From: a virus
Taxonomy: Duplodnaviria > Caudoviricetes
Reading direction: 5' to 3' (one strand)
Virus record (IMG/VR): IMGVR_UViG_3300049472_000168
Location: 74,266 to 138,265 of that record
DNA: 64,000 nucleotides
Position numbers and translations under genes: made by a program. How positions within the stretch are numbered: the stretch's first letter is position 1; every line of letters starts with the position of its first letter. The notes beneath the pieces were generated by a model. The model worked only from the letters and a program-made list of their open reading frames with translations, searched no databases and was not told the DNA's origin. This document shows, in pieces, positions 9,751 through 58,900 of this stretch.

Positions 9751-10386
9751 ATGGATCTAAGAAAAATCATTGTATATGCGCTGCTAGACCCCAGAGATAG
9801 CACGATGCGTTATATTGGTAAGACCAAGCAGAGACTCAAGACAAGGATATGTCGGCACCAAAGAGACGCTCTGATGAAAATTGATGATAGGTGGGAGGAT
9901 ACAACCCATCGGGCCAATTGGCTTAGAACTATCTATAAGGAAGATCTGACTCCTGAGGTGTTAGAGCTTGAGACAGTAGAAGAACAAGAAGGGAACGAAT
10001 CAGAAAGATTTTGGATCTCTTATTTTAGAGGTATTGGATGTGACCTCACCAACTCTACAGAGGGAGGTGATGGCGGTATCATCAGTCGGGTTTCGCTTGT
10101 GTCGGATGAGGAAATATGTGCTCTCTATTCTTCAGGGGTGAAAAACAGTAAGGCTATCGCCAAGAATTTGCATACCTGCGCAAAAAGAGTAGTGAAGGTC
10201 CTTCGGAGGAACAATATATCCCTCTGTACGATTGGAAAGAGGATCAAAGATGATCTAGGGAATGAGTTCCGTTCCATAACTGAAGCGTCTGTTAAATAAT
10301 ATGGAGTTTCGATGGGTGCTGTAAGTAATGTATTGAGAGGTTATAATAAGACCTCTGCTGGGAGAAAGTTTAGCTATGTCGATTAA
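9751..10386 (+). CDS. GIY-YIG homing endonuclease; C-terminal NUMOD1-like HTH interrupted by an in-frame TAA (10297-10299)
   Basis: IVYALLDPR...RYIGKT...R..RH, E..WI...LTN...GG; frame continues after TAA as YGVSMGAVSNVLRGYNKTSAGRKFSYVD. Confidence 0.8.
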
Positions 10387-13300
10387 TATTTTTCTTTCTT
10401 TCGATGGCGATCACATTGGTAGGATGGTTGGTCGGGCCAGACTTTCCGACGAAGTCGAAGAGGTAAGAAGAATAGATCATGCGATCAAAATGGGTAATGA
10501 GGTGTTTAGATCGTGGGCTGTGACTAGCGGTGGCTCTATTACTGAAATTAGTGGCGATGAGGGTACCATCGAGATCCCCGCCGATGTCTTGGAAGACCTC
10601 CCCAGCATCTGCCATACCTATAAAACAGCCGTTGGAGCCACGGTAAGCGTTGGGTTAGGTAAGACCCTTTCTGAATCCGCAAAAAGTCTTATGGCGGCAA
10701 AGCTCAGGGGTGGTTCCAGGGCTGTATTCTATGGCCCCGATGTCGAAGAGACCATATCTGCCCGCAAGGAGCCGACAGAGGCCGAGAAGATCCAAGACGA
10801 ATACCTCAACAAAGCTGAAGGTTCGGCTCAGGTCAGTCCCGATGCCATCGGAGGGTCCCCACACGAATCCTCGGAGCATACCGAAGCCGAAACCGCTAGA
10901 GCCGTTGCCGAAGGTGCCCCTCCCCAACAGGACTATGAGACTAGTTTTCATAGTGCCGCGACGCATCAGGAAACCAAGGACAGGGCCAGGAATCTACAGA
11001 ATTCAGAGGACATGTCCCAACTCAAGGCCAAGGTCGCAGCTTCCCTGGAGTCTTTGCGTCAGCAGTTGCCGGTTCTGAACCAGTTGAAATCGGCTTACCC
11101 CGACAGCTACAAGGCGGTTACTTCCTTGGTTCAGTCCGTCATCGGGCTGTCCAGAGGAATCCAGGCTGCTGATGAGCAGCTAGAAAACGTCCAGAAATCG
11201 GAGAGACCCCGATTTGCCGATATCAAGCCTAAAAAAAAAGAGGAAAACGAGTTCGACTATAGCCACCTGTTGCCGCCTCAGATCCAATCGCAGGGTTACA
11301 AGATTAGAGTAAAAATGAAGTCGTCTGTAACCGGTAATCCCGGAGATAGCTTTCTCTCCAGTACCGTAATTTCTCCTAGCGGTTCGCCCAAGGGCAGAGT
11401 ATCGGGATATTTCTATAACGGAGCCGTAGAGCCTCATTCAGGACTAGATCTTGACCTCCAAGGTAAAGGTATAGGAAAGGCCTTATACGAGGCCCTCTAT
11501 GCCCATGCAAAAAACAAGCATGGTGTCAATACGGTAAGGGGTGAAGGTGCCAGCAAATCAGCCCATCATGTCCATTTGTCCTTGGCCAAGAAGTATGGAT
11601 TCAAGATAAAATCACAGGACCCCGATGAAGATGTGGGTCCAGATGTTCCCTATCATTACCAGATCAAATCAGAACTCCAAAAAACAGAGGACATCGGTCT
11701 TCATGACGTAGGTCCAGAGGAATTTTCTGCTGCTATAGCTCCTAGCTTCCGGGGCCATGGAGCCGAAAATCTGACACAGCATCCGGTGGAGCATTATAGA
11801 AAAGCGAAAAAGCTCGTAATCAGTTCAGATGGTCATTCCGGATACGCCATATTCGACGACGGCGAATTCGGCAACCTATTCTCCAGGGTCAAAGGCAGAG
11901 GCGACGCCTTAGTTTCCCATGCCTCTGCAAACCACCCAGGAGCCCATCTCAATGTCCTGGATAGCCCACACCTAGTCGGACTCTATTCTAGACATGGGGC
12001 AGTTGAAACCCACAGGGAACCGAACTGGACCCCAGGTGGGCCCGATGTCGTCCATATGAAGTTTGGTAACTTGCAGAAAGCGATTCCAAAGAAACACTGG
12101 GTAGAGAATACCGGAGGCTTCGGGAATCCTCTTCGGATTCCAGTATCCAGCAATCCAGACCGCAAGGCCTGGGACCAGGAGTTCCTTCGTGGTGTAGAAG
12201 ATAGGTTTCCTGGTGTAAAGGAACTCAGGGATATCGATATCGACAAAATCGTCGGAGGAAATAGCAGAGGGGTAGCGAATAAAGACAGATTCCAGCTTTA
12301 TTCCAAAATAGCGGGGTCCGATAGACTTCCTCCTGTGGTTGTCAGGCCTCTAGGAGATAAGTACGAACTCCTCGACGGCACCCACAGAACTGAAGCCGCT
12401 AAAGCAAAAAAGCTGAAGACGATTCCTGGTGTCGTGATGAAGGCCGATTTGGAGAAGGCCTTTGATTTAAAGCCTATAGGCTCCCCGGAACCCGGAGAGC
12501 ATCGAGGCTACAAATTTAATGCCCACGACTATACCCATCTCCTTCCTCAAGGAATGGAAGGACATAAGCTCAAGGTAACATCCTACGAGCCTACCGATGA
12601 AGACCCCGGAATCATCAGGGCTTCACTACTAAATCACAACGATGAAGAAGTAGGCCGCGTCTCTGGATTCAAATCCAGCAAAGGTGATAACGCCATAGAA
12701 CCCCACAGTTTCGTTGATGAAAAATACAGAGGCAAAGGATTTGGGAAGCTATTATACAGCATTCTCTATTCTCATGCTCTCGGAGAGGGTTACAATAGGG
12801 TATCGGGAGACTACCACAGTGAGTCTGCTCATAGGGTTCATGATGCTTTAGCCAGACAGCATGGTTTTACGATTGAAGGTGCCGAAAAAAGGAAACTTCA
12901 GGTCTCGAAGCCCTATTCCCCGTATAGCTACGATCTGGGTAAGGAACAACTCTCAGATACCGAGGATGAAGTAGGTCACGTTCCTGTATTTAGTTCAACA
13001 GATCCCTTGGACGAGCTTCATCCAGTATTTTTTCACCACAACGATTTAGTCAAAGGTGCGATGCAGAGGCTGTATCCTATAGATCCTAGAAAGATCAAGC
13101 AACAAGAGATCGGCACCAGATGGGATAAATTCAACAACAAGGTACTCCCTGCCACTACGGAGGATTTCATTGGTCAACGAATGTCGGGACATGATAGTGC
13201 CCGCGAAGCACTAGCAGAACAAGGCAACTCGCCAGCTTTGGAGCCCGCCAGACAGAGGGCGCTTCACCGACTTCACGGACTGACCCAGGTCAGAAAAAAC

Positions 13301-14554
13301 AGCAACGGGAAAAGAGAGTTTTTGTTGCATCGCGGCTACGGACCCGACGAAGATTCTATAGCAAATGGGGTCAAAAATAAATACAGCAATTCGACCTCTT
13401 CCTCTTCTTGGACTCCTCATCTAGAGGTAGCAAATAAATTCTCGGACTGGAGTAAAGGTGGAGGCGGAGTGTCGGCATGGATACCAGAAGACTCCATTCG
13501 TTTCTCTATGCCTCAATTAGGCGGAATCGACAACAAAGACCAGGTTCCGAATCAGACAAAATATGAGCACGAAATAATCGTGGCTCCAGGGGAATATGAC
13601 AAACATATCGTTGTAAGAAAAGCAGAAGATCTCGAAAAGGCCAGCTTCAAGGACATCAAGTCCCAGAACTCAGCGATTAAACCTGAGGCACCCGATGGTC
13701 CGAGGTCGCAGTTCTTCGATTATACCCATCTCCTGCCTCAAGCCTACCAGAAAACACACAGCCTGGAAGTCTTCCATTCCAAAACGGCCCCTTCCTACAT
13801 GAAGAGGGGTCGTCTTATCGCGGTTCTTCGCAGCAAGTCGGATCCCGGATATCCAGCCCATGGAGTTGTTGTCCCCAGTCTCAAAGACCCCGAACTAGGC
13901 TACGTCGATGTCGCCGGAAGCTACTCCAATGGAGACGGCAACGGAGTCGAAGGTCTAGTCCATGGCATCCTGGGCGAAGAGGTTCCTCGCCAAAAAACGA
14001 TGACTCCCCACAGCTTCCTTAAGGAAAAACACCACGGCAAAGGTGTAGGTAAGGCCATGTACGAAGCCCTCTATGCCAGAGCTATGGCTCAAGGCATCGA
14101 TCAGATCCACGGCGGCGTCCATAGTCCTCAAGCCTCTGCCGTTCACCAGTCATTGGCCCAGAAGTACGGATTCAAGGTCGAAGGCGGGAAAAAAGTCCCG
14201 TTCGGTCATGATAGATATAAATATACTATCAAAGACGAGATCAAAGACTTCCATCTCGAACCCCATCCCGACAACGACCCGGTCTTTGTCGTAAAGTCTG
14301 AACTCGCCCCAGAACAATCCGTACCGGAATCCAGTGACCTCGATAAGATCGCTTTGGATTCGGCTCATGCCAAGAAGAATCTCAAGCTACCTCCTGGAAC
14401 TCTCCTCAACGGAAAGCTGAAGGTCCAGCATAACGACGGGACCAAAGGATGGAAGGGCGTCAGGGCAGGCCTCATCGCTTCCCAAGAATCACACACACCT
14501 TTGCTAGGCAGCAATTCTCATCCGGTATCGTCTAGAGAGCCTAGCTCGAAATAA
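10376..14554 (+). CDS. polyvalent multi-enzyme protein: mCpol-like cyclase/polymerase, GNAT-like x4, ParB-like, ADP-ribosyltransferase-like
   Basis: N-terminal FDGDHIG...SGDEG; three internal repeats DY[ST]HLLP...PHS...GKG.GK.LY; LPPVVVR...YELLDGTHR; LLHRGY...SSW...YEHEII. Confidence 0.8.
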   Translation: MSINIFLSFDGDHIGRMVGRARLSDEVEEVRRIDHAIKMGNEVFRSWAVTSGGSITEISGDEGTIEIPADVLEDLPSICHTYKTAVGATVSVGLGKTLSESAKSLMAAKLRGGSRAVFYGPDVEETISARKEPTEAEKIQDEYLNKAEGSAQVSPDAIGGSPHESSEHTEAETARAVAEGAPPQQDYETSFHSAATHQETKDRARNLQNSEDMSQLKAKVAASLESLRQQLPVLNQLKSAYPDSYKAVTSLVQSVIGLSRGIQAADEQLENVQKSERPRFADIKPKKKEENEFDYSHLLPPQIQSQGYKIRVKMKSSVTGNPGDSFLSSTVISPSGSPKGRVSGYFYNGAVEPHSGLDLDLQGKGIGKALYEALYAHAKNKHGVNTVRGEGASKSAHHVHLSLAKKYGFKIKSQDPDEDVGPDVPYHYQIKSELQKTEDIGLHDVGPEEFSAAIAPSFRGHGAENLTQHPVEHYRKAKKLVISSDGHSGYAIFDDGEFGNLFSRVKGRGDALVSHASANHPGAHLNVLDSPHLVGLYSRHGAVETHREPNWTPGGPDVVHMKFGNLQKAIPKKHWVENTGGFGNPLRIPVSSNPDRKAWDQEFLRGVEDRFPGVKELRDIDIDKIVGGNSRGVANKDRFQLYSKIAGSDRLPPVVVRPLGDKYELLDGTHRTEAAKAKKLKTIPGVVMKADLEKAFDLKPIGSPEPGEHRGYKFNAHDYTHLLPQGMEGHKLKVTSYEPTDEDPGIIRASLLNHNDEEVGRVSGFKSSKGDNAIEPHSFVDEKYRGKGFGKLLYSILYSHALGEGYNRVSGDYHSESAHRVHDALARQHGFTIEGAEKRKLQVSKPYSPYSYDLGKEQLSDTEDEVGHVPVFSSTDPLDELHPVFFHHNDLVKGAMQRLYPIDPRKIKQQEIGTRWDKFNNKVLPATTEDFIGQRMSGHDSAREALAEQGNSPALEPARQRALHRLHGLTQVRKNSNGKREFLLHRGYGPDEDSIANGVKNKYSNSTSSSSWTPHLEVANKFSDWSKGGGGVSAWIPEDSIRFSMPQLGGIDNKDQVPNQTKYEHEIIVAPGEYDKHIVVRKAEDLEKASFKDIKSQNSAIKPEAPDGPRSQFFDYTHLLPQAYQKTHSLEVFHSKTAPSYMKRGRLIAVLRSKSDPGYPAHGVVVPSLKDPELGYVDVAGSYSNGDGNGVEGLVHGILGEEVPRQKTMTPHSFLKEKHHGKGVGKAMYEALYARAMAQGIDQIHGGVHSPQASAVHQSLAQKYGFKVEGGKKVPFGHDRYKYTIKDEIKDFHLEPHPDNDPVFVVKSELAPEQSVPESSDLDKIALDSAHAKKNLKLPPGTLLNGKLKVQHNDGTKGWKGVRAGLIASQESHTPLLGSNSHPVSSREPSSK

Positions 14555-16895: not shown

Positions 16896-17747
16896 ATGTT
16901 CAGCATCAATCTCGACCTTTCTCAGATCCAGGAGTTATCGAAAGACATCCAGACCTCCCTGGAAGCAGCAGCAAAACAGGCTGGAGAAGAGCTGGCACAG
17001 CGCACCAGAGCCAAAGCCATTGAGCTAGCCTCAGAACGGCTGAATTCGAGGCGTAAGAAATTTATCGATGCCTTAAGTCTAAATTTCGAGGAGGGCGTCT
17101 GGGTCCTTAAACTAGATGAATCCATGGCTTGGATCGATGACGGCATCGAACCCCATAACATGATAGAGAACCTCCTGAAATCGCCAAAGGCGAAGAGATC
17201 GAAGGACGGGTCATCATACCTCGTGGTTCCATTTGACCACAGCCCAGGACACGGAGCCACTAATTCGACCCCGGCCCAGCTAGACCTAGTCGATACAGTC
17301 AAAGCCGAGATGAAGCGTAGAAAGATTCCTTGGGCCACTGTTGAGAGAGATTCTCAGGGCAGACCCAAAACAGGAAAACTTCACAGTTTCCATATCAAGA
17401 ATACCCCCCTAAAAACCGGGGAAGGTCCTGGTCAGGGCTGGGGGCCTAAAGGCGATGTCAAGCAGGGTCCGAATCAGGCCCAGATCAAAGGTGGCAAATC
17501 CAAACCAGGTGGAGGCGGTATCCCTTTCCTTCAAGGGGTATCGGTTTATCAGACACCGGATGGTGGCGGCGGCACCAAGAGGTCTGTGATGACCTTTAGG
17601 GTCGTCAGTTCTAAACAAAGTTCGCCTCGATGGGACCACCCCGGCCTCCAGCCGACCCATCTTTTTTTGGATACAGAAAAATGGATGTGGGAAGAATTCA
17701 AGAAGATGGAACCAGAAATTATCCAGTCCGTTTTAGACAAGCTCTAG
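16896..17747 (+). CDS. putative neck/tail-completion protein (HK97 gp10-like region)
   Basis: N-terminal helical segment, YLVVPF and C-terminal TFRVVSS...WDHPG typical of myovirus neck proteins. Confidence 0.55.
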   Translation: MFSINLDLSQIQELSKDIQTSLEAAAKQAGEELAQRTRAKAIELASERLNSRRKKFIDALSLNFEEGVWVLKLDESMAWIDDGIEPHNMIENLLKSPKAKRSKDGSSYLVVPFDHSPGHGATNSTPAQLDLVDTVKAEMKRRKIPWATVERDSQGRPKTGKLHSFHIKNTPLKTGEGPGQGWGPKGDVKQGPNQAQIKGGKSKPGGGGIPFLQGVSVYQTPDGGGGTKRSVMTFRVVSSKQSSPRWDHPGLQPTHLFLDTEKWMWEEFKKMEPEIIQSVLDKL

Positions 17748-22748: not shown

Positions 22749-22982
22749 ATGAAAGCAGTTATAGAAGGTATCAGTTGTGAGGGGACCCCAGAGGAAATCG
22801 CTGAAATCGTAAGGCTTCTGAAGGATCCCCAAACATTTCAGGTTCCCCAGGTCCCTTTTATTCCTCAATTCACCTACATATGCAGTCACGATTTCCCTCA
22901 GATATGGCATGGCGTGATTCCTCCGGTCTGTTCCAAGTGTGGACTACAGGCGCAGTCCTCCTCACTAACCTTTACTGTTTAG
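22749..22982 (+). CDS. small Zn-binding protein
   Basis: AGGA SD; CSH...CSKC. Confidence 0.55.
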   Translation: MKAVIEGISCEGTPEEIAEIVRLLKDPQTFQVPQVPFIPQFTYICSHDFPQIWHGVIPPVCSKCGLQAQSSSLTFTV

Positions 22983-22984
22983 CA

Positions 22985-24886
22985 ATGGCACATAACAGTT
23001 ACGCTTGGCATGATGGTCATACCTCGTTCCATCTCGGAATGAAGAAGACAGATCATCCCAACACCATGGCTCATGGGCCCATAGGAAATGACCAGGCCGC
23101 TGGGGTGGGGTCGAAAGACTACGGCAGGATGGCGGCACCTTATGGTACTGTGACGAAGGGCGTCAAAACCAACCTCAAGTTTTATCCTTTGGAAGGCAAG
23201 CACCAAGAAGCCTCGAAGCAGGTAACAGATCATGGCTACCAGGTTTATTATGCCGGTGGCCCCCATGGGAAGCCAGACCTAGCTACTAAGAACTACAATA
23301 CTAAAAATTTGATGATATATGACCCCAGTGCTGGATCTGGAGGCGACTTCGGGGACACCTCCTATACCGACGCCTGGCGTAAGACCCATGAACTGGCCCA
23401 TGCTTTGACTTATGGAGATGTCAACAGTCTCTATGGCGAAGGTCGAAGGATCGGAGCATTAGGCAAACACAGGACCCCGAGAGAAGCCAAAAGAGCGGTT
23501 CATTGGGAATGGCTAGTTGCCCACAAACAGCGAGAACTGGCTAAGCAACTAGGTGTCCATATCAGTGATGCTGATTTTAATCGAGAAACCAATACGGTTA
23601 TGCATGATGCCGTTCATCGTGCTATCACGGGCAAGTTCAGCGAACCCGGAGACGAAGGATTTAGTCCTCACCCTCACAAGGTTCCTCTGGAAACAGCTCT
23701 AGGTATGATTGACCAAGAATCGAAAAGACTCGGACTCAGGCATGACGACGATCTATTGCAGAAGTCCGAATTAGTCAAATTTTGTAGCCCTGACACAGAA
23801 CTTAATCTTTCCGTTACTACTGGGAGTCACATGGACGCCAAAACACTTAAATCCGAACTAGCTAAATCACTTCGCAGCGTTGTTGAGGCCCATGCCAAGA
23901 CTACTACTGGACTCATCGCATCAGAATCCAGAGGTCTCGAAAAACTCAATAAATCTGATATCGAGAAATGCGGAGAAATCGAGAAATCCGATGTCGAGCC
24001 CGCAGAGTCTTCGAGCTGTCCCGGATGTGGTGGTGAATCCCACGAACTCGGCCCCATGGGTCGGAGGAAGCATTTTATGTGTAAGGGCTGCGGCCTGACC
24101 CACAGCAGAGGGGAAGAGACTCCCTCTAAGGAAGTCAAGAAAGAAGAGCTTCCTGCTGTTAAGGCTGCTGATGAGAAGCCACGAGATGGCGCCGTGATGC
24201 CTGATGACAAAAAGTCTAAGGTTGTCGATGCCGAAGGTGCCGGTGGTGATGTCTCTAAAGGCAAGATGGCTAAGAGGGAGACCGCATTCGTCAAGAAGCC
24301 CGCTGCTGATGACATCCAGGCTCCGATTAGCGGTGGTGAAAAGAAAGCTGCCGGTATCGGATTCCTTAACGGCCTGATTTCAAAGTTTCATGGTGCCGGA
24401 GACAAGACCTGGGCTAAGACTGGTCAGACAGCCCCTAGTCCCGGTGCAGTGGCAAGACGAACTGGTTCCAGAATGGCTCTTGCAGAGATGCCTCATCAGA
24501 ACGATGGTGCCAAGATGCAATCCAACGGGACCACTGTCCCAATGGGCAAGACAACTGCCGAAGAAGCCAACAAGGAAATCAAGGGCTTCAAGTCTATCTT
24601 CAATAATCCTACGGCTTTCCCCAAGGGTAAAATGTCCTTTACCGGTGGCCATACTTCAGTGGCTGGAGCCGACAAGGAAATTCGAGGCTTCAAGTCGCTG
24701 AATCTGAAGCCTCCGATGGTCAAGGATGAGATCCCAGCAGCTCCAAAGGCTCCCTCAGCCAAAGCGACGAAGCCCCCTAAGGTCGCCCCTGTTCCGACTC
24801 CGAAGACCCCTAAAGTCGAAGGCCCCAAGGCTCCTGGAGCCACGGCAAAGGCTGAAAAGAAGTCCGACAAGAAGTCGAAGAAATAA
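22985..24886 (+). CDS. putative internal head protein: HExxH domain plus K-motif-rich disordered C-terminal half
   Basis: THELAH; CPGC/CKGC Zn ribbon; many xxK[SAE] motifs; internal AATCTT, SD and ATG at 23804-23833. Confidence 0.65.
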   Translation: MAHNSYAWHDGHTSFHLGMKKTDHPNTMAHGPIGNDQAAGVGSKDYGRMAAPYGTVTKGVKTNLKFYPLEGKHQEASKQVTDHGYQVYYAGGPHGKPDLATKNYNTKNLMIYDPSAGSGGDFGDTSYTDAWRKTHELAHALTYGDVNSLYGEGRRIGALGKHRTPREAKRAVHWEWLVAHKQRELAKQLGVHISDADFNRETNTVMHDAVHRAITGKFSEPGDEGFSPHPHKVPLETALGMIDQESKRLGLRHDDDLLQKSELVKFCSPDTELNLSVTTGSHMDAKTLKSELAKSLRSVVEAHAKTTTGLIASESRGLEKLNKSDIEKCGEIEKSDVEPAESSSCPGCGGESHELGPMGRRKHFMCKGCGLTHSRGEETPSKEVKKEELPAVKAADEKPRDGAVMPDDKKSKVVDAEGAGGDVSKGKMAKRETAFVKKPAADDIQAPISGGEKKAAGIGFLNGLISKFHGAGDKTWAKTGQTAPSPGAVARRTGSRMALAEMPHQNDGAKMQSNGTTVPMGKTTAEEANKEIKGFKSIFNNPTAFPKGKMSFTGGHTSVAGADKEIRGFKSLNLKPPMVKDEIPAAPKAPSAKATKPPKVAPVPTPKTPKVEGPKAPGATAKAEKKSDKKSKK

Positions 24887-24919: not shown

Positions 24920-27427
24920 ATGGCACAACAATTCGCTACCGACTCCGGAGTTCTAACGATTCCTGGAGCCTATCCCATCGTCAAGGTCCAGAACAACCCC
25001 AGTGGCTTGGCCACAACTGGCGTCCTCATGGTTGTTGGTGAGGCCGATTCAGGCCCCAGCTATGCCGAGGAATCAGACCTGAGCCTGAACGCTTTCGGTC
25101 CGGATCAAATCGGTGATGTCGTCGCCAAGTATCGCTCAGGCCCCATTGTCGATGCCTTCAGAGGTGCTGTTGCTGCATCCAATGATACCGGAATCACAGG
25201 TAGCTTCGGTAGGTTCCTGGTTGCTAAAACCAATACCTCGGCTAAAGCTACTGGAACAATTCCTGCTATCGGTGGTGGAACCTACGCCAATATCAGCGAT
25301 AAGTCAACTGGTAAGTCTGGTAACTTGATTTCCAGAGTTCTGACCTCGGCTACGACTGAGGTAGTTCCTTCTACTGGTAATATCGTTCTCTGTCCTCCTC
25401 AGGTCAGCACTGATGTTGCCTTCCGCGTCAACGGTGGAGCCGAAGTTACGGCTTCGTTCTCGGCTGCGAATAGCCCGACAACGATGGCCGCTGCCATCAG
25501 CGCATTGGCCGGTGTTGTTGCTACGGGTGGTGTTGATAGGCTTACCGTTAATGCCGTTGCCGGTTCTTTGACGGTTGCAGTTGTCAGCGGTTATGCCGTT
25601 ACTTTCACCATCACTGGCGCAACATATAACGTGCTGCCTTCAGTTGGTGATATCCTTTATGTCCCCACGGGTAGCCCCCTGGCTACTGCTAATGAGGGTA
25701 CTTATGTAGTCACCGCTGCTGCTGGTACCGTTATTTCGGCTCGCAAGCTACTCGATGCTGCCGGTGCCGGTTCTGCTCTGACGGCTCCTACCGCTGAGGG
25801 TCCGATTGCCATCGCGGCAACAACCGACCTGAAGTGCTACAGCCCTGTGGTTATTTCTAACGAGGCCGGTGTTGTTGTTCCGGGTCTTGGAAAGTCGCTG
25901 GAAGTTGCAAATACCAGCACTGGAAATTTCGGGTCCATTGCTTATGTCTTTACCTCAGCAACTGCCAGCCCTCCGGCTGCTAATGCTACCTTCGTTTCCA
26001 CCTCTGTGGTTCCTACGGTCATCACGTCTTCGGCTGAGTACGGTGTCAGCATTAATACTGCAAAACAATCCGACAACATCTCTGAAACCGTCACGGTCCA
26101 GGGCCAGGTCTGGTTGACTCTTGGTTATACGGGCACCACGGCATCGGCTGTGATCTCGGCTGGTGTCATGACGATCACGGTTACGGGTGGAGCCGGGGCG
26201 TCTCAGACCATCACGCTGGCTGACTACCCCACAATCGCAGACCTCTGCCAATACCTCAACTCCTTGACCGGATACACTGCGGCTCCTGCCACAACAGCTC
26301 TGGGTCAGAAGGCCTCTACATCCTTGGACGCCGGGACCTACACCATCGCTACCAAGCATGGTGCCAAGACCGGAAGAATCAAGGCAGATGGTTACCGGTT
26401 CTTGACTGAAGTCAATTCTGGAAACATCCTCGTCGATATCTCTGCGGTTATCCCTGCAACAGCCCTGGTCGGTCTCCCCGATGTGGCTTCGCTGGCTTTC
26501 CTCAGCGGTGGTGCCAGAGGTGCAACGACTGATGCTGCCGTTCTGGGGGCTCTGGATGCGCTCAAGGCGTGTCGAGGCAACTTCGTTATTCCTCTATTCA
26601 GCCGAGACGCATCATTCGATATTACTGATGGCATCACGGATGCGGCGTCAACCTACACCATCGACAGCATCAATACAAATGCCAGGGCTCACGTCCTGGA
26701 GATGTCGCAGATGAAGAAGAGGCGTCCGCGTCAGGCCTTTGTGAGCTGTCGCGACACCTTCACCAATGCCAAGAACAAGGCCGGTAACATGGCGTCCTCC
26801 AGAGTCTACATGGGCTTCCAGGATGTCAAGGACACGAACTCTGCTGGTGTTCTGACTCAGTTCCAGCCCTGGATGCAGGCAGTCAAGGCTGCTGGTATGC
26901 AGGCCGCTGGGTTCTATCGTCCGATTGTTAACAAATTGGTTAATGTATCGGGGGTCTTGCATCCTGGTGGTGGTTTCAATGACCAGTTGGATTCCAACAT
27001 CGAAGATGCCTTGAAGGCTGGTCTGAATCCTGCGGTTCGTGCCGAATCCGGTGGCTACCGCTGGATCAGTGATCAAACCACCTACACCAGAGATGATAAC
27101 TTCGTCTTCAACTCGGTCCAGGCCGTATATGTCTCCGACATCATTGCTCAGACCGTGGCTCAGCGAATGGAACTGGCCTTCGTCGGTCAGTCTGTGGCTG
27201 ATGTCAGCAGTGTTGTTGCCAAAGCCGCTCTGGACCGCATCATGGGCGATATCCTGAGACTGAAACTGACAGCACCTTCTGATGATGGCGCCCTTGGTGG
27301 CTACAAGAATGCCTCGATTAAGATCAACGGACCATCAATGGTTGTGAGCCTGGAAGCGAAGCTCGCTGGCGCGCTTTACTTCATACCAATCACCTTCTTG
27401 GTGACGCCAGTCCAGCAATCAGCTTAA
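24920..27427 (+). CDS. contractile tail sheath protein
   Basis: N-terminal IPGAY...VGEADSGP; C-terminal sheath core ending LYFIPITFLV; 835 aa. Confidence 0.88.
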   Translation: MAQQFATDSGVLTIPGAYPIVKVQNNPSGLATTGVLMVVGEADSGPSYAEESDLSLNAFGPDQIGDVVAKYRSGPIVDAFRGAVAASNDTGITGSFGRFLVAKTNTSAKATGTIPAIGGGTYANISDKSTGKSGNLISRVLTSATTEVVPSTGNIVLCPPQVSTDVAFRVNGGAEVTASFSAANSPTTMAAAISALAGVVATGGVDRLTVNAVAGSLTVAVVSGYAVTFTITGATYNVLPSVGDILYVPTGSPLATANEGTYVVTAAAGTVISARKLLDAAGAGSALTAPTAEGPIAIAATTDLKCYSPVVISNEAGVVVPGLGKSLEVANTSTGNFGSIAYVFTSATASPPAANATFVSTSVVPTVITSSAEYGVSINTAKQSDNISETVTVQGQVWLTLGYTGTTASAVISAGVMTITVTGGAGASQTITLADYPTIADLCQYLNSLTGYTAAPATTALGQKASTSLDAGTYTIATKHGAKTGRIKADGYRFLTEVNSGNILVDISAVIPATALVGLPDVASLAFLSGGARGATTDAAVLGALDALKACRGNFVIPLFSRDASFDITDGITDAASTYTIDSINTNARAHVLEMSQMKKRRPRQAFVSCRDTFTNAKNKAGNMASSRVYMGFQDVKDTNSAGVLTQFQPWMQAVKAAGMQAAGFYRPIVNKLVNVSGVLHPGGGFNDQLDSNIEDALKAGLNPAVRAESGGYRWISDQTTYTRDDNFVFNSVQAVYVSDIIAQTVAQRMELAFVGQSVADVSSVVAKAALDRIMGDILRLKLTAPSDDGALGGYKNASIKINGPSMVVSLEAKLAGALYFIPITFLVTPVQQSA

Positions 27428-36692: not shown

Positions 36693-38147
36693 TCAAATAG
36701 AAATTTTCCATTTCGTTGTTCCCAGATCCCAGATCCTGGAATATCCGGCAGCTATAGCTAGTTCTCGTTCTGTTTTGTTAGGGTCTCCTCCAAACCTCTT
36801 AAGTAAGATGTCCTTCCTCAAGGTAAAGCGGTGATATCTCTTCTGGGATTTTACGTAGTGGTAGGACTGCGGAGATCTACTGACCTCAACAAATCCAGAA
36901 GCAGCATAGACATCGCCTCGACTCCATCTATTGTCTGAATAGGAGAATACCTCAGTAGCTCCTGTCTTGGCTTTGAAGGCTTTTAGGATTCTACTCAGCC
37001 CTCCTGGTATCGAATGGTTCGGCTTGGAACAAAACCTAGACAATTCCCATTCATTTGGCTTGATTCCTCGGCTTGGATTGCCTCTAGCAAACGTAGCTAT
37101 AGCCACCAGGTTCCCGACGTACGATAGTCCGATATGGATTCCAGGTCTCGACTTCTGAAGATGCCAGTTTCCCACAACTTCTCTGGCTTTCTCAGGAGAG
37201 ATTTCGACAACTTCGCACTTCCTGGCCCCTATAGAAACCTCGTTTTGGCCAAGAATAGATCGCAACCTGGCCTTTACCTTCTCTTCAGATTGCAGCCATT
37301 CATCTTCAAAGATGACGATAAGTCTACCTCCTGTGCTGGCTATTTTGTCTGCTTTGGTCTTGATCCTAGTCTTGGCATCAGCTCCCAGGGCTTTTTCGCT
37401 GTGCCAGTAGAGACCATCATATTCTATGGCGATTTTACGGTCAGGGACCCAGATATCCACCTCCAGAGGAGGAATTATTTTACGACTCCTGGAATAGGCT
37501 TCGACTCCAAGACTTCTAATGTAATCGTATATCTTAGTCTCCGCCTTTGACGCTTCGCATCCACAGCTCCTCCAGATACCGGACAAAAATCCGTTTATTT
37601 TGGGATAAAACTTGTCACCACAACTACATATTACCTCTATTTTTTGGTGGACACCAGAAATCGGTCCAGTTCTGCTAGAGTCCTGAACCTTACACCCACC
37701 AGAAGCCGCTATATCATATAAATCCTCGTAAGTATATGTTGATGTCTTGACCTTCCCGTCCCTGGGTAGACATCCGCAACTTTTTACATACCCATGAACC
37801 AATCGATAGACCTCAGGGGAAAATTCGACACCACACCGACAAATGAGCCTGATTCGGTCATCGGCCTTCAGGTGCCGGGAAAAATCTACAACTACAAACC
37901 CTTTAGCGATAGCGGCTTCTTTGATTTTTTCTGGTGTGTTGAGTCCTGGCTTCCCTTTATTGCAAGAACAACAACGCTGTCCTTTTAGAATTGTCCAGGC
38001 CATAGCATTAAAGTTACCGCCGCACTTCTCACAGATCGCTGTTACCTTAGTTTTGGTTGTTACTTTGTGGGGCAAATCAACAAACTCTAGGTCCGTCAGG
38101 AGTAGTTTTTCAGTAACAGTAAGAGCGGTAATCTTTTTATTGTCCAT
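36693..38147 (-). CDS. Hef-like homing endonuclease: Zn-ribbon repeats + Vsr/PD-(D/E)xK nuclease + GNAT-like C-terminal domain
   Basis: C.CG...SCGC repeats; EVDIWVP..KIAIEYDGLYWHS; WELSRFCS...SYSDNRW...Y...GF. Confidence 0.8.
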   Translation of the reverse strand: MDNKKITALTVTEKLLLTDLEFVDLPHKVTTKTKVTAICEKCGGNFNAMAWTILKGQRCCSCNKGKPGLNTPEKIKEAAIAKGFVVVDFSRHLKADDRIRLICRCGVEFSPEVYRLVHGYVKSCGCLPRDGKVKTSTYTYEDLYDIAASGGCKVQDSSRTGPISGVHQKIEVICSCGDKFYPKINGFLSGIWRSCGCEASKAETKIYDYIRSLGVEAYSRSRKIIPPLEVDIWVPDRKIAIEYDGLYWHSEKALGADAKTRIKTKADKIASTGGRLIVIFEDEWLQSEEKVKARLRSILGQNEVSIGARKCEVVEISPEKAREVVGNWHLQKSRPGIHIGLSYVGNLVAIATFARGNPSRGIKPNEWELSRFCSKPNHSIPGGLSRILKAFKAKTGATEVFSYSDNRWSRGDVYAASGFVEVSRSPQSYHYVKSQKRYHRFTLRKDILLKRFGGDPNKTERELAIAAGYSRIWDLGTTKWKISI

Positions 38148-56585: not shown

Positions 56586-56780
56586 TTACCTATAGGAAGC
56601 CACCGAGGCCTTAGGCAGGATGTAGACTGGATATTCCTTCGGAAAATCCACCCTGCCATCGGTACAGATAATTCTTAGGGAGTCTCCAGCAATTGAGATA
56701 TGCTGGACCTCCCTGAAAGCCTCCTCGAAGGCGTCGAAGAAGATGTCGCCTTCGATTAGATCTGAAGCAGTTCTGATCAT
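56586..56780 (-). CDS. hypothetical protein
   Basis: ATGA overlap. Confidence 0.5.
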   Translation of the reverse strand: MIRTASDLIEGDIFFDAFEEAFREVQHISIAGDSLRIICTDGRVDFPKEYPVYILPKASVASYR

Positions 56781-57172
56781 GAGATTTCAAACAACAACTT
56801 CTCAAGTTCAGAGACCACGATATACTCAATCCTGTACTCAGAATAATTACCGTAGTAATCGTGTTCTGTTTCGGTATTGTCGTGAACCAGCTCAAGAACC
56901 TTCTTGTATTGAAGGTAGGTTATATTAGGTTTGAGATATTCGAGAACAATATCTAGAACCTTCCATTTATTTTTGGGTTCGTCTTCTACGAAGTCCGTGG
57001 CACCTGAGTCGCCATCTTCGTCAAAACAGCTACCACCTGCGGCTCCACCTGTTAGGTACCTCGTATAGATGACAGGAGTCTTGATCTTAATCGGGATACC
57101 GGATGGCTGTACGAAGACCCCCTGTCCGTAGGGGCATTTCTTGTTGATTTCTTCGATCATTGATTTGATCAT
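56777..57172 (-). CDS. hypothetical phage protein
   Basis: TGG..GGSC...L...PNITYLQY...DYYGN. Confidence 0.65.
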   Translation of the reverse strand: MIKSMIEEINKKCPYGQGVFVQPSGIPIKIKTPVIYTRYLTGGAAGGSCFDEDGDSGATDFVEDEPKNKWKVLDIVLEYLKPNITYLQYKKVLELVHDNTETEHDYYGNYSEYRIEYIVVSELEKLLFEIS

Positions 57173-57174
57173 AT

Positions 57175-57384
57175 TTAATCCTCGATATTGATGAGACCCT
57201 CGGTCTGTAGATCAAGCAAGACCTGATGACATTCTGGGCTGCAAACCGGAATCGCAGGTCTCGGGAACCGGTAGGATAGATAGCTAGTGGGTTCGCCGCA
57301 ATTCAGGCAGTCAGCGGTATCAATCGATTTAAAGACATCCTTCTCGATTTCTCGAAACGCCCAGGTGTCTTCGGGGTACTTCAT
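57175..57384 (-). CDS. small Zn-finger protein
   Basis: CLNC...CSPEC. Confidence 0.55.
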   Translation of the reverse strand: MKYPEDTWAFREIEKDVFKSIDTADCLNCGEPTSYLSYRFPRPAIPVCSPECHQVLLDLQTEGLINIED

Positions 57385-57387
57385 GAC

Positions 57388-57600
57388 CTAGACCTGGATC
57401 TCACCAGTCGTCCAGTCGATTTCTGCATCTTTGCCATAGGTCTCGACTACAAAATTTCTATAAACCAAGCGGCCTTCGACATAGAGCTTGCTGCCTTCGG
57501 CCCAGACCTTGTTGCCTTCGTCCTAGACCTTGTCGCCTTCGGCAAAGAGCTGTTGGCATTGATTCCAGGCTGCTTCGATTTTTGGATGTTTCGTCTTCAT
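57388..57600 (-). pseudogene. heptad-repeat family copy 3 with in-frame TAG (57523-57525)
   Basis: MKTKHPKIEAAWNQCQQLFAEGDKV*DEGNKVWAEGSKLYVEG...TYG...IDWTTGEIQV; promoter TTGACA-N17-TATATT-N6-ATG (57607-57635). Confidence 0.75.
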
Positions 57601-57631
57601 TTGTTTAATATATCGGAAAGGTCTGGGGATG

Positions 57632-57928
57632 TCAAGGAGACAGAGAATACCCACCCAATTTGGCACCTACACTGCTCACAAAAGCGGCTGCAAAGGCATC
57701 GAGGTCATCGATCCAAAGAGGAGAGCAATTCTTTCCGTGGAGCTGCCCTTGTATCAGTTCCTGGTATGTCAAAGGGAATGGAATCTGCAATTCCAATGAC
57801 TCAGCCACCTTCACAGCCCATGTACAAGCTAGAGAGCTACGAACAACGATATAGCCTCCGTGTTCAGCACACTTCTTGACTAGCTCTGTGGTTTTACCCT
57901 TACCTCTATCCATAATTACCGCTTGCAT
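57632..57928 (-). CDS. small P-loop-like protein
   Basis: RGKGKTT and LWIDD; GGAGG SD. Confidence 0.6.
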   Translation of the reverse strand: MQAVIMDRGKGKTTELVKKCAEHGGYIVVRSSLACTWAVKVAESLELQIPFPLTYQELIQGQLHGKNCSPLWIDDLDAFAAAFVSSVGAKLGGYSLSP

Positions 57929-57937
57929 CTTGACCTC

Positions 57938-58900
57938 CTAGTGAAACTCGGTACCATTCTTACGGAGAAGATATTCTTCTCCTAGCAGCTTCAAAGCGAT
58001 TCTGTTTTCTGTTGTGGTCTTGACGATGACGCCTTCTTTGATTTGGTCCTTGGCCAGAACCGAATTGCCCTGGGCCAGCTTATAGGTTGCCTCGAAGTCG
58101 TAGGGACCTCTGTAGAGAACGGGAACCACAGGAATGCTCCTGGCTTCGCAGAATGCTACCATTTCATCCCAGGGCAACCAGACCCCTTTGCGATTATCCC
58201 AGATGTCGAAGGCGGCGAAACTTAGATCAACGCCGTAGTTAAGATCCTGGACCTTGCCGTAGACCTCGCCATACAGAGTCAGATCGGGAGGAAGTCTATC
58301 GAAGAAGGGTTTTGTCGCCGCCCACCAGACATTGGAATCCTCGGGCTTCCACCAGGTCCGATGTGAACCGACATGGACGCCATCGGAATCGATCAGAACC
58401 CTGGCGTTGCAACCATGGATCTTTTCGGTAATGATGACTTCGGTTCCGGGAGGAATTATTTCCTTGTACCGCAACAGGTTATCCATGCCATAGACCGGGA
58501 CGTGTCCGCTTGGCGGAGATGCGGTATCGGCATTTCCTCTCAGACTCATCCCCTTCTGAACTTCCTCGAATTTGATGATACCTAGGGCTTCGGCGTAGTC
58601 CTGACCAACAACATAGTCATCAGGAGCCTTGACAAGCATTCCCATCGAGAAAACGCCACGGAGTCTTGCGGCTTTGACCCTGTGGTGGGTCTTGCCTTCT
58701 TTGCCGAGAAAAGCGAATCTCGAATCTGACAAAGGAACAACGGCATCAATTGGGACGTAGAGGGCAACCTCTCCGGGACAGAAGTCTCCAGATCTAACAA
58801 TGACTCTGTATCCAAGGACTTCGACAATACTGAGCCTGTCGGCTCCAGGGTGTGGATTGATGGCTTCGATTTTTACGGCTTCGACTTTGAATTCAGACAT
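57938..58900 (-). CDS. RNA ligase, DRB0094/Rnl2-like with N-terminal OB fold
   Basis: HPGADRL, RLRGVFSMG, TEKIHG (motif I), YGEVYG, FDI, EGVIVK. Confidence 0.9.
   Translation of the reverse strand: MSEFKVEAVKIEAINPHPGADRLSIVEVLGYRVIVRSGDFCPGEVALYVPIDAVVPLSDSRFAFLGKEGKTHHRVKAARLRGVFSMGMLVKAPDDYVVGQDYAEALGIIKFEEVQKGMSLRGNADTASPPSGHVPVYGMDNLLRYKEIIPPGTEVIITEKIHGCNARVLIDSDGVHVGSHRTWWKPEDSNVWWAATKPFFDRLPPDLTLYGEVYGKVQDLNYGVDLSFAAFDIWDNRKGVWLPWDEMVAFCEARSIPVVPVLYRGPYDFEATYKLAQGNSVLAKDQIKEGVIVKTTTENRIALKLLGEEYLLRKNGTEFH

Follow-up and report, generated by a model that had tools for sequence, protein, structure and literature searches.

A conserved lysine motif at the module boundaries of a phage polyvalent protein as a candidate prohead-protease connector

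Does a phage protein that joins many unrelated enzyme modules act as one chain, or is it cut into its parts and carried in the virion? The question is raised by a gene in a stretch of 64,000 nucleotides (hereafter the window), which forms the 3' end portion of one 138,265-bp viral contig (Duplodnaviria; Caudoviricetes; IMG/VR record IMGVR_UViG_3300049472_000168, positions 74,266 to 138,265). Window positions 10376-14554 on the plus strand hold a single open reading frame (ORF) of 1392 aa (P0001). An earlier note on this DNA, made from the sequence alone, described the ORF as a string of enzyme modules punctuated by a hydrophobic-x-Lys motif and proposed that a Lys-specific head-maturation protease releases the modules for packaging and injection. 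Judged by sequence comparison, we regard it as moderately probable that the protein is a polyprotein that the prohead protease cleaves and the capsid carries.

The closest sequenced phage is Myxococcus phage Mx1 (OR576727), whose capsid protein is 56% identical. The best explanation of the locus is that the virus is a large Mx1-like myophage and that the gene encodes a late-expressed polyvalent protein. The database gene call (P0002) begins 16 aa downstream of the ATG at 10376, yet the upstream ATG is the true start, since the D10-G11-D12 triplet that it adds is invariant in the family alignment. The ORF and its modules are as follows, with arrows marking the position after each motif lysine:

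10376..14554, plus strand: polyvalent protein ORF P0001, 1392 aa (ORF translation; start from the invariant D10-G11-D12)
10376..10813, plus strand: mCpol palm domain, aa 1-146, ending in EYLNK↓AE (Pfam PF18182, AlphaFold2, Foldseek, invariant DGD/GDE)
10814..11197, plus strand: acidic disordered stretch and helical region, aa 147-274, ending in NVQK↓SE (AlphaFold2, ends of BLAST alignments)
11198..11686, plus strand: GNAT repeat 1, aa 275-431, with a tail IK↓SE-LQK↓TE to aa 437 (Pfam GNAT, AlphaFold2)
11687..12079, plus strand: different GNAT-like unit, aa 438-568, ending in NLQK↓AI (phrog_2563)
12080..12457, plus strand: ParB/Srx-like unit, aa 569-694, ending in VMK↓AD-LEK↓AF (ParB_N below cut-off, phrog_3264, Spo0J/ParB matches in the PDB, DGTHR)
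12458..13054, plus strand: GNAT repeat 2, aa 695-893, tail ending in DLVK↓GA (Pfam GNAT, limits of BLAST alignments)
13055..13639, plus strand: ADP-ribosyltransferase (ART)-like module, aa 894-1088, R/S/ExE, ending in VRK↓AE-DLEK↓AS (motifs in 16 copies)
13640..14296, plus strand: GNAT repeat 3, aa 1089-1307, ending in VVK↓SE (Pfam, phrog_1249, AlphaFold2, GNAT fold matches)
14297..14347, plus strand: spacer, aa 1308-1324, ending in DLDK↓IA (low AlphaFold2 confidence, conserved K1324)
14348..14551, plus strand: small C-terminal beta domain, aa 1325-1392, found family-wide including Mx1 (alignment, AlphaFold2)

The reading of the ORF as a module string was borne out by Pfam, PHROGs, AlphaFold2 and Foldseek, the fold of the ART-like unit excepted. 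The AlphaFold2 runs used MAFFT alignments of shuffled homologs and were informative for aa 1-433, 1090-1290 and 1335-1392, and uninformative for aa 434-600 and 680-1090. The N-terminal mCpol domain is matched by PF18182 at aa 6-119 (34.1 bits against a curated cut-off of 26.4) and modelled with predicted local distance difference test (pLDDT) values of 93-98. Its best Foldseek matches are structures of the Panoptes protein OptS (9pd0, 9mnr; template modelling score 0.85, root-mean-square deviation 1.9 Å, about 118 aligned columns). The acidic active site is kept, with D10, D12, D61 and E62 unchanged throughout the family alignment (DGD, GDE), and the domain is apparently an active nucleotide cyclase. 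OptS is an mCpol protein of bacterial defence with active-site residues Asp6 and Asp57 (PMC12657218); the phage domain shares its fold and conserved acidic residues, but is phage-encoded, fused to a polyprotein and without an OptE-type effector partner. Downstream, an acidic disordered stretch (aa 150-168, pLDDT below 50) leads into helices at aa 170-275.

Three stretches of the protein score above cut-off with the GNAT models PF00583, PF13508 and PF13673. Repeats 1 and 3 yield confident models, for which fold searches return GNAT folds: in repeat 1 the pLDDT is 84-98 and drops below 50 from aa 434 onward, and repeat 3, which also matches phrog_1249, is confident at approximately aa 1090-1290. 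Repeat 2 is defined by a Pfam GNAT match at aa 752-832 and by BLAST high-scoring segment pairs (HSPs) that start at aa 691-720 and end at aa 856-865. The different GNAT-like unit matches phrog_2563 at aa 447-562 (E=1.7e-21), is called “acetyltransferase” in Streptomyces phage records and lies where the AlphaFold2 model is uninformative. For the ParB-like unit, ParB_N at aa 640-691 reaches 21.9 bits, under the Pfam cut-off of 26.3; further matches are to phrog_3264 (3e-7) and to Spo0J in the PDB (E=0.006), and the DGxHR motif is present as DGTHR. The C-terminal domain (aa ~1335-1392) is modelled as four short strands with a pLDDT of 73-90 and is conserved in the family; the spacer and flank ahead of it (aa 1291-1334) score below 50. 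No paralogs of the N- or C-terminal modules were found in the phage's own proteome.

The ART call of the earlier note stood as far as its motifs are concerned. R (LLHRG), S ((S/T)SW; SSW in the target) and E-x-E (EHE in the target) occur in this order in all 16 module copies among the homologs, and 14 of the 16 copies begin after LxK↓G(A/S)M. The part of the call that did not stand is the match to a profile or fold: the module has no Pfam family match, AlphaFold2 confidence in the region is below 50 and lends no fold support, and a lead from the Atlas to DUF4765 (score 0.92) is weak, with few shared features. For want of such a match, we name the module “ART-like” only. It is found two to four times per protein in the homologs P0049, P0114, P0098 and P0136, nearly always after L-x-K↓G(A/S)M, and looks like an undescribed, repeat-prone module family.

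What separates these modules is the lysine motif. All copies listed by the earlier note are present, at 10805, 11189, 11663/11675, 12071, 12437/12449, 13046, 13613/13631, 14288 and 14339. In its strict form, [LIVM]-x-K-[ASG], the motif occurs 11 times in the target against 5.6 expected (about twofold, p~0.02-0.03), and a looser pattern 13 times against 8.0. Since the excess is only about twofold here and non-significant in other giant proteins, the count was set aside as evidence, and position and conservation were used.

Position gives a clear signal. Family members share their ends and differ in the middle, and BLAST alignments of the target to 150 family representatives begin and stop at motif sites. 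HSP ends accumulate, for instance, at aa 276-280, near K274. The median breakpoint density is 18 at motif lysines and 2 at other lysines (Mann-Whitney U test, p=3.5e-4; permutation, p=3e-4), and nine of the 11 motif copies lie at homology breakpoints. The enrichment at linkers that the earlier note had suggested checking is thus clear for placement (p~3e-4) and weak for raw frequency. Wherever the AlphaFold2 models are informative, the motif sites fall at the margins of domains or in linkers of low confidence. K146 caps the last mCpol helix ahead of the disordered stretch, K274 ends a helix (aa 242-275), K431 and K436 sit at the collapse of confidence beyond GNAT repeat 1, K1088 directly precedes the confident part of GNAT repeat 3, and K1307 and K1324 fall within the low-confidence spacer ahead of the C-terminal domain.

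Conservation points in the same direction. Across the 150 representatives with their differing payloads, the junction columns retain Leu/Val at P3, Lys at P1 and Ala/Ser/Gly at P1', while P2 is variable. The lysine is conserved in 112/148 homologs at K146, 71/115 at K274, 64/69 at K431, 12/14 at K893, 28/33 at K1088 and 53/69 at K1324; weaker columns are K436 (9/40), K689 (14/30) and K1307 (20/54). The codons at the motif sites vary freely, and therefore the constraint acts on the protein. The freely differing codons also rule out the idea that the junctions are recombination linkers of conserved DNA.

The same site recurs in the head proteins of this phage. Its own capsid protein carries ALIK↓ALEAG, which aligns with ALNK↓ALEAG of SPO1 Gp6.1 and with VVK↓S of a Twort-like capsid protein. 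The latter is deposited with 463 aa (5LII) and with 439 aa (9ROW), and the 439-aa chain starts right after VVK; a literature search turned up no usable account of where the Twort-like or SPO1 capsid protein is cut. Five complete relatives (168-182 kb) have a capsid propeptide that varies in length and sequence and then an invariant L-x-K↓ALEAG. In the scaffold-like protein of the phage (294 aa, encoded upstream of the capsid gene) the motif appears eight times, where 1.7 copies are expected (p=4e-4); each scaffold from the five complete relatives has four to nine. At genome positions 56728-57714 (minus strand) the longest ORF is an Arg/Ser/Leu-rich antisense artefact, opposite which lie the real plus-strand genes for a 158-aa protein (56734-57210) and the 294-aa scaffold (57241-58125); automatic longest-ORF calls therefore miss the scaffold.

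A position-specific scoring matrix (PSSM), trained solely on junction sites from the homologs of other phages, leads to the same proteins. Outside the target, its top sites in the proteome fall in a 2167-aa NUDIX-PBECR5-kinase protein, at both ends of the portal protein and in the scaffold, and its sites are enriched in a pre-defined head set with p=1e-4 to 3e-3 at four thresholds. The 2167-aa protein is a second polyvalent protein of NUDIX-PBECR5-PI3/4-kinase-like architecture (genome 63317-69820, plus strand; L005:7317-13817). Its sites are AEDLHK↓AE, just past the NUDIX domain, and PEDLHK↓AE; in Mx1 it corresponds to two separate proteins, a “NUDIX hydrolase” and a “kinase”.

A candidate for the protease that the earlier note had advised looking for elsewhere in the genome was located in the head module. 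Between the portal/MuF genes and the scaffold gene lies the gene for a 1240-aa head protein (genome 52327-56049, plus strand; L004:15327-19046), which is 37% identical over about 820 aa to the 1239-aa “putative prohead protease” of Mx1. Its first ~200 aa group with S78/S77 clusters in the language-model features of the Atlas. Homologs of this protease-like domain (aa 1-190) conserve N(W/Y/F)EH and (F/Y)SIEG(S/A)T, of which WEH and SIEG are found in the candidate. The 1240-aa protein also repeats, nearly unchanged, the N-terminal arm and site of the capsid protein (IKK↓AIEAGSLDGAPS / IKK↓AIEAGSLDGAPSSRTQGAALQRED), a copy that recurs in relatives. Its N-terminal domain is likely the prohead protease. 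The C-terminus is a GGDEF domain; together with the mCpol domain of the target, this would put two nucleotide cyclases on putative head cargo.

The genome also encodes a 154-aa paralog of the protease domain (11941-12402, minus strand; L002:11941-12402), 56% identical and situated in what is probably the early region. Both putative catalytic residues are replaced (WEH by WEY, FSIEGS by FGIGGF), which makes it a dead pseudo-protease by its sequence.

With a threshold of E<1e-3 the gene family of the target numbers 1682 cluster representatives, and with E<1e-30 it numbers 253. Its members have a common N-terminal module and C-terminal domain around a differing middle, and the shortest consist of the bare frame. 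The Mx1 homolog, a hypothetical protein of 468 aa for which the Mx1 records give no function, shares the N-terminal module and the C-terminal domain, carries PVQK↓SE and FDK↓AS, and stands in the same gene order. In contrast to the target, it is nearly without payload, and its mCpol motifs look degenerate (SIDH and LGAVG versus DGDH and GDEG). Among the related IMG/VR loci listed, the order on one strand is NUDIX/kinase polyvalent genes, family gene, a 283-aa gene, homologs of a 904-aa and a 668-aa protein, tail sheath and tube. This conserved position in a structural block fits late expression alongside virion proteins. The capsid gene is 10 kb upstream in one related locus and ~25 kb from the target gene in the contig analysed here. 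Two genes of the window anchor the order:

16896..17747, plus strand: 283-aa gene, the conserved immediate downstream neighbour among the related loci listed (synteny; two high-scoring PSSM sites)
24920..27427, plus strand: tail sheath, 835 aa (homology to the Mx1 tail sheath, conserved order), which sets the target in the late structural block

The 904-aa protein was considered as the tail sheath and rejected, the sheath being the 835-aa protein. The 668-aa protein, encoded upstream of the sheath gene (window 22880-24886, plus strand), is a possible further substrate of the protease: the looser pattern occurs in it ten times where 3.8 would be expected (p=0.006), and the PSSM marks several high-scoring sites. 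Also among the structural genes, on the minus strand at window 36693-38147, lies the gene for an HNH/homing-endonuclease-like protein of 484 aa that has a Mom-like match to phrog_559 (1e-89).

The model that we favour combines these elements as follows. A conserved frame, consisting of the mCpol domain and helical region at the N-terminus and a beta domain of ~60 aa at the C-terminus, encloses exchangeable enzyme cassettes, each bounded by a conserved hydrophobic-x-Lys site with Ala, Ser or Gly next in line. The polyprotein would co-assemble into the prohead, where the HK97-like prohead protease, the putative N-terminal domain of the 1240-aa head protein, would cut after the motif lysines. The released enzymes would remain in the head, enter the next host with the DNA and there may acetylate, ADP-ribosylate or signal against host systems.

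The main rival is that the chain is never cut. The L-x-K-A/S sequences would then be linker or domain-cap words that move with shuffled and duplicated cassettes, and their likeness to the capsid site would be coincidental. A motif word starts each of the three GNAT repeats, as expected from duplication, the count enrichment is weak, some sites terminate helices or strands in the AlphaFold2 models rather than lying in free loops, and polyvalent proteins of the N4 vRNAP type are packaged uncut (PMC5512222). Against this rival, unrelated modules are bounded by one and the same word (the mCpol end, the helical end, the ART-like start, the ParB-like edges and the C-terminal domain), and P1 and P3 are conserved next to a variable P2 and variable adjoining linker residues. 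Moreover, the hits of a matrix derived from the junctions include the second polyvalent protein, the scaffold and both ends of the portal. We hold an uncleaved chain to be doubtful.

It is quite unlikely, in our view, that the protein is cut at the motif sites without being virion cargo, either acting late in the producing cell or being cleaved in the cytoplasm by a phage or host protease. The distance of ~25 kb to the capsid gene would suit such a scenario, as would the fact that no capsid-targeting signal was identified in the target, and the dead protease paralog hints at a more complex protease biology. However, prohead proteases of the HK97 and T4 type act inside assembled proheads, and in the related loci listed the gene stays within the structural block and shares the strand of the sheath and tube genes. 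A signal for incorporation would also fit the architecture, in which the payload varies while both termini are conserved. The idea that the lysines are kept for modification or regulation, for example through GNAT self-acetylation or ADP-ribosylation, draws on the presence of several GNAT units and an ART-like unit in the target and on lysine as the usual GNAT acceptor. We consider it highly improbable, as the motif is also found where GNATs are absent (scaffold, portal, capsid propeptide and the Mx1 468-aa homolog) and the homologous capsid site of the Twort-like phage appears to be the mature N-terminus.

Several observations weigh against processing by a head protease and carriage in the capsid. 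Motif counts in the three giant proteins are not significantly over background. The earlier note had named motifs inside folded domains as a finding that would tell against it, and two of the 11 copies do lie off breakpoints, in GKGxGKA loops within folded GNAT cores. Five sites are without structural placement because AlphaFold2 is uninformative at aa 434-600 and 680-1090. The Pfam S78 and S77 models match nowhere in the genome, near-length homologs of the protease-like domain carry no Pfam annotation, and a PDB sequence search with this domain found nothing. The cut position of the Twort-like capsid protein is deduced from deposited chain lengths, and the contig is a partial genome with a CheckV completeness estimate of 84%. 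Finally, a literature search found neither proteomic or biochemical data for Mx1 or the phage analysed here nor a paper on Mx1. The note's suggestion of a Lys-specific head protease nevertheless gained support from the capsid junction, the scaffold, the PSSM and the protease-like domain, the raw motif count being barely above chance.

Among characterised phages, HK97 offers the closest likeness in the cut itself. Its mature gp5 starts at residue 104, after TFNK↓S, and thus, like the target sites, has a hydrophobic P3, Lys at P1 and Ser/Ala at P1'; the delta domain also holds the words LIQK↓A, LTK↓S and LIK↓S. The candidate protease described here has His and Ser motifs in an order comparable to that of HK97 gp4, but unlike gp4 it is missed by Pfam S78 and fused to ~1000 extra residues including GGDEF. 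HK97 gp4, in turn, processes the capsid protein and itself, and no enzyme polyproteins.

T4 Alt is a packaged ART, and the T4 protease cuts at L/I-x-E and the phiKZ protease at S/A/G-x-E, in both cases after Glu. T4, phiKZ and SPN3US share with the model proposed here a cargo, enzymes included, that is packaged in the head and has a short motif at which the prohead protease trims it. The precedent drawn from T4 and phiKZ by the earlier note is apt in this respect and fails for the cut residue; since those proteases cut after Glu, the analogy is imperfect, and the HK97 cut after Lys is closer. No S77 match was obtained, and the sites of the target end in Lys, which sets it apart from T4-type internal proteins, whose N-terminal capsid-targeting sequence is taken off at L/I-x-E by gp21, an S77 protease. 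The processing in T4 and phiKZ also consists mostly of the removal of N-terminal propeptides, and no enzyme string is split there at every junction. SPN3US gp53 is cut at at least three motif copies (PMC10052503).

Polyvalent proteins combine unrelated enzyme domains in one phage chain, are encoded among late or structural genes and are predicted to be co-delivered with the DNA (Iyer, Burroughs, Anand, de Souza, Aravind 2017, PMC5512222). Their repertoire includes GNAT, ParB-like, ART, NUDIX, PBECR and GGDEF domains (PMC5512222). The target agrees with this description both in its domains (mCpol, three GNATs, GNAT-like, ParB-like and ART-like) and, among the related loci listed, in its late structural context. 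The 2017 study proposes either self-processing by embedded zincin-like peptidases or no processing; it describes no junction motif, does not use the term “linker” and mentions “prohead” once. The target differs in that it is without an embedded peptidase, its junction motif matches the capsid protease site, and swappable cassettes are set between fixed termini. The interpretation of the junction motif as a prohead-protease connector appears to be new.

A bolder version of the model, which we rate as unlikely, sees the protein as a standardised cargo rack. Its fixed termini would load the chain into the prohead, and its protease sites would serve as universal connectors into which any anti-defence enzyme could be plugged and from which it would be freed. 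The injected, active mCpol would make decoy cyclic nucleotides that keep Panoptes-type guard effectors off, while other tools of the phage deplete immune signals.

If the polyprotein model is correct, tailed phages would use a strategy resembling that of RNA virus polyproteins to deliver a set of enzymes together with their genome. The capsid protease would double as a tool for enzyme release, and a short connector would make the cassettes freely exchangeable. The motif would also provide a sequence rule by which effectors delivered with the virion, and the limits of each, could be recognised across a family that exceeds 250 clusters; the rule is directly testable because Mx1 is a cultured Myxococcus phage. 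The phage mCpol cyclase, the repeated GNATs and the new ART-like module would then be candidate counter-defence enzymes of the first minutes of infection.

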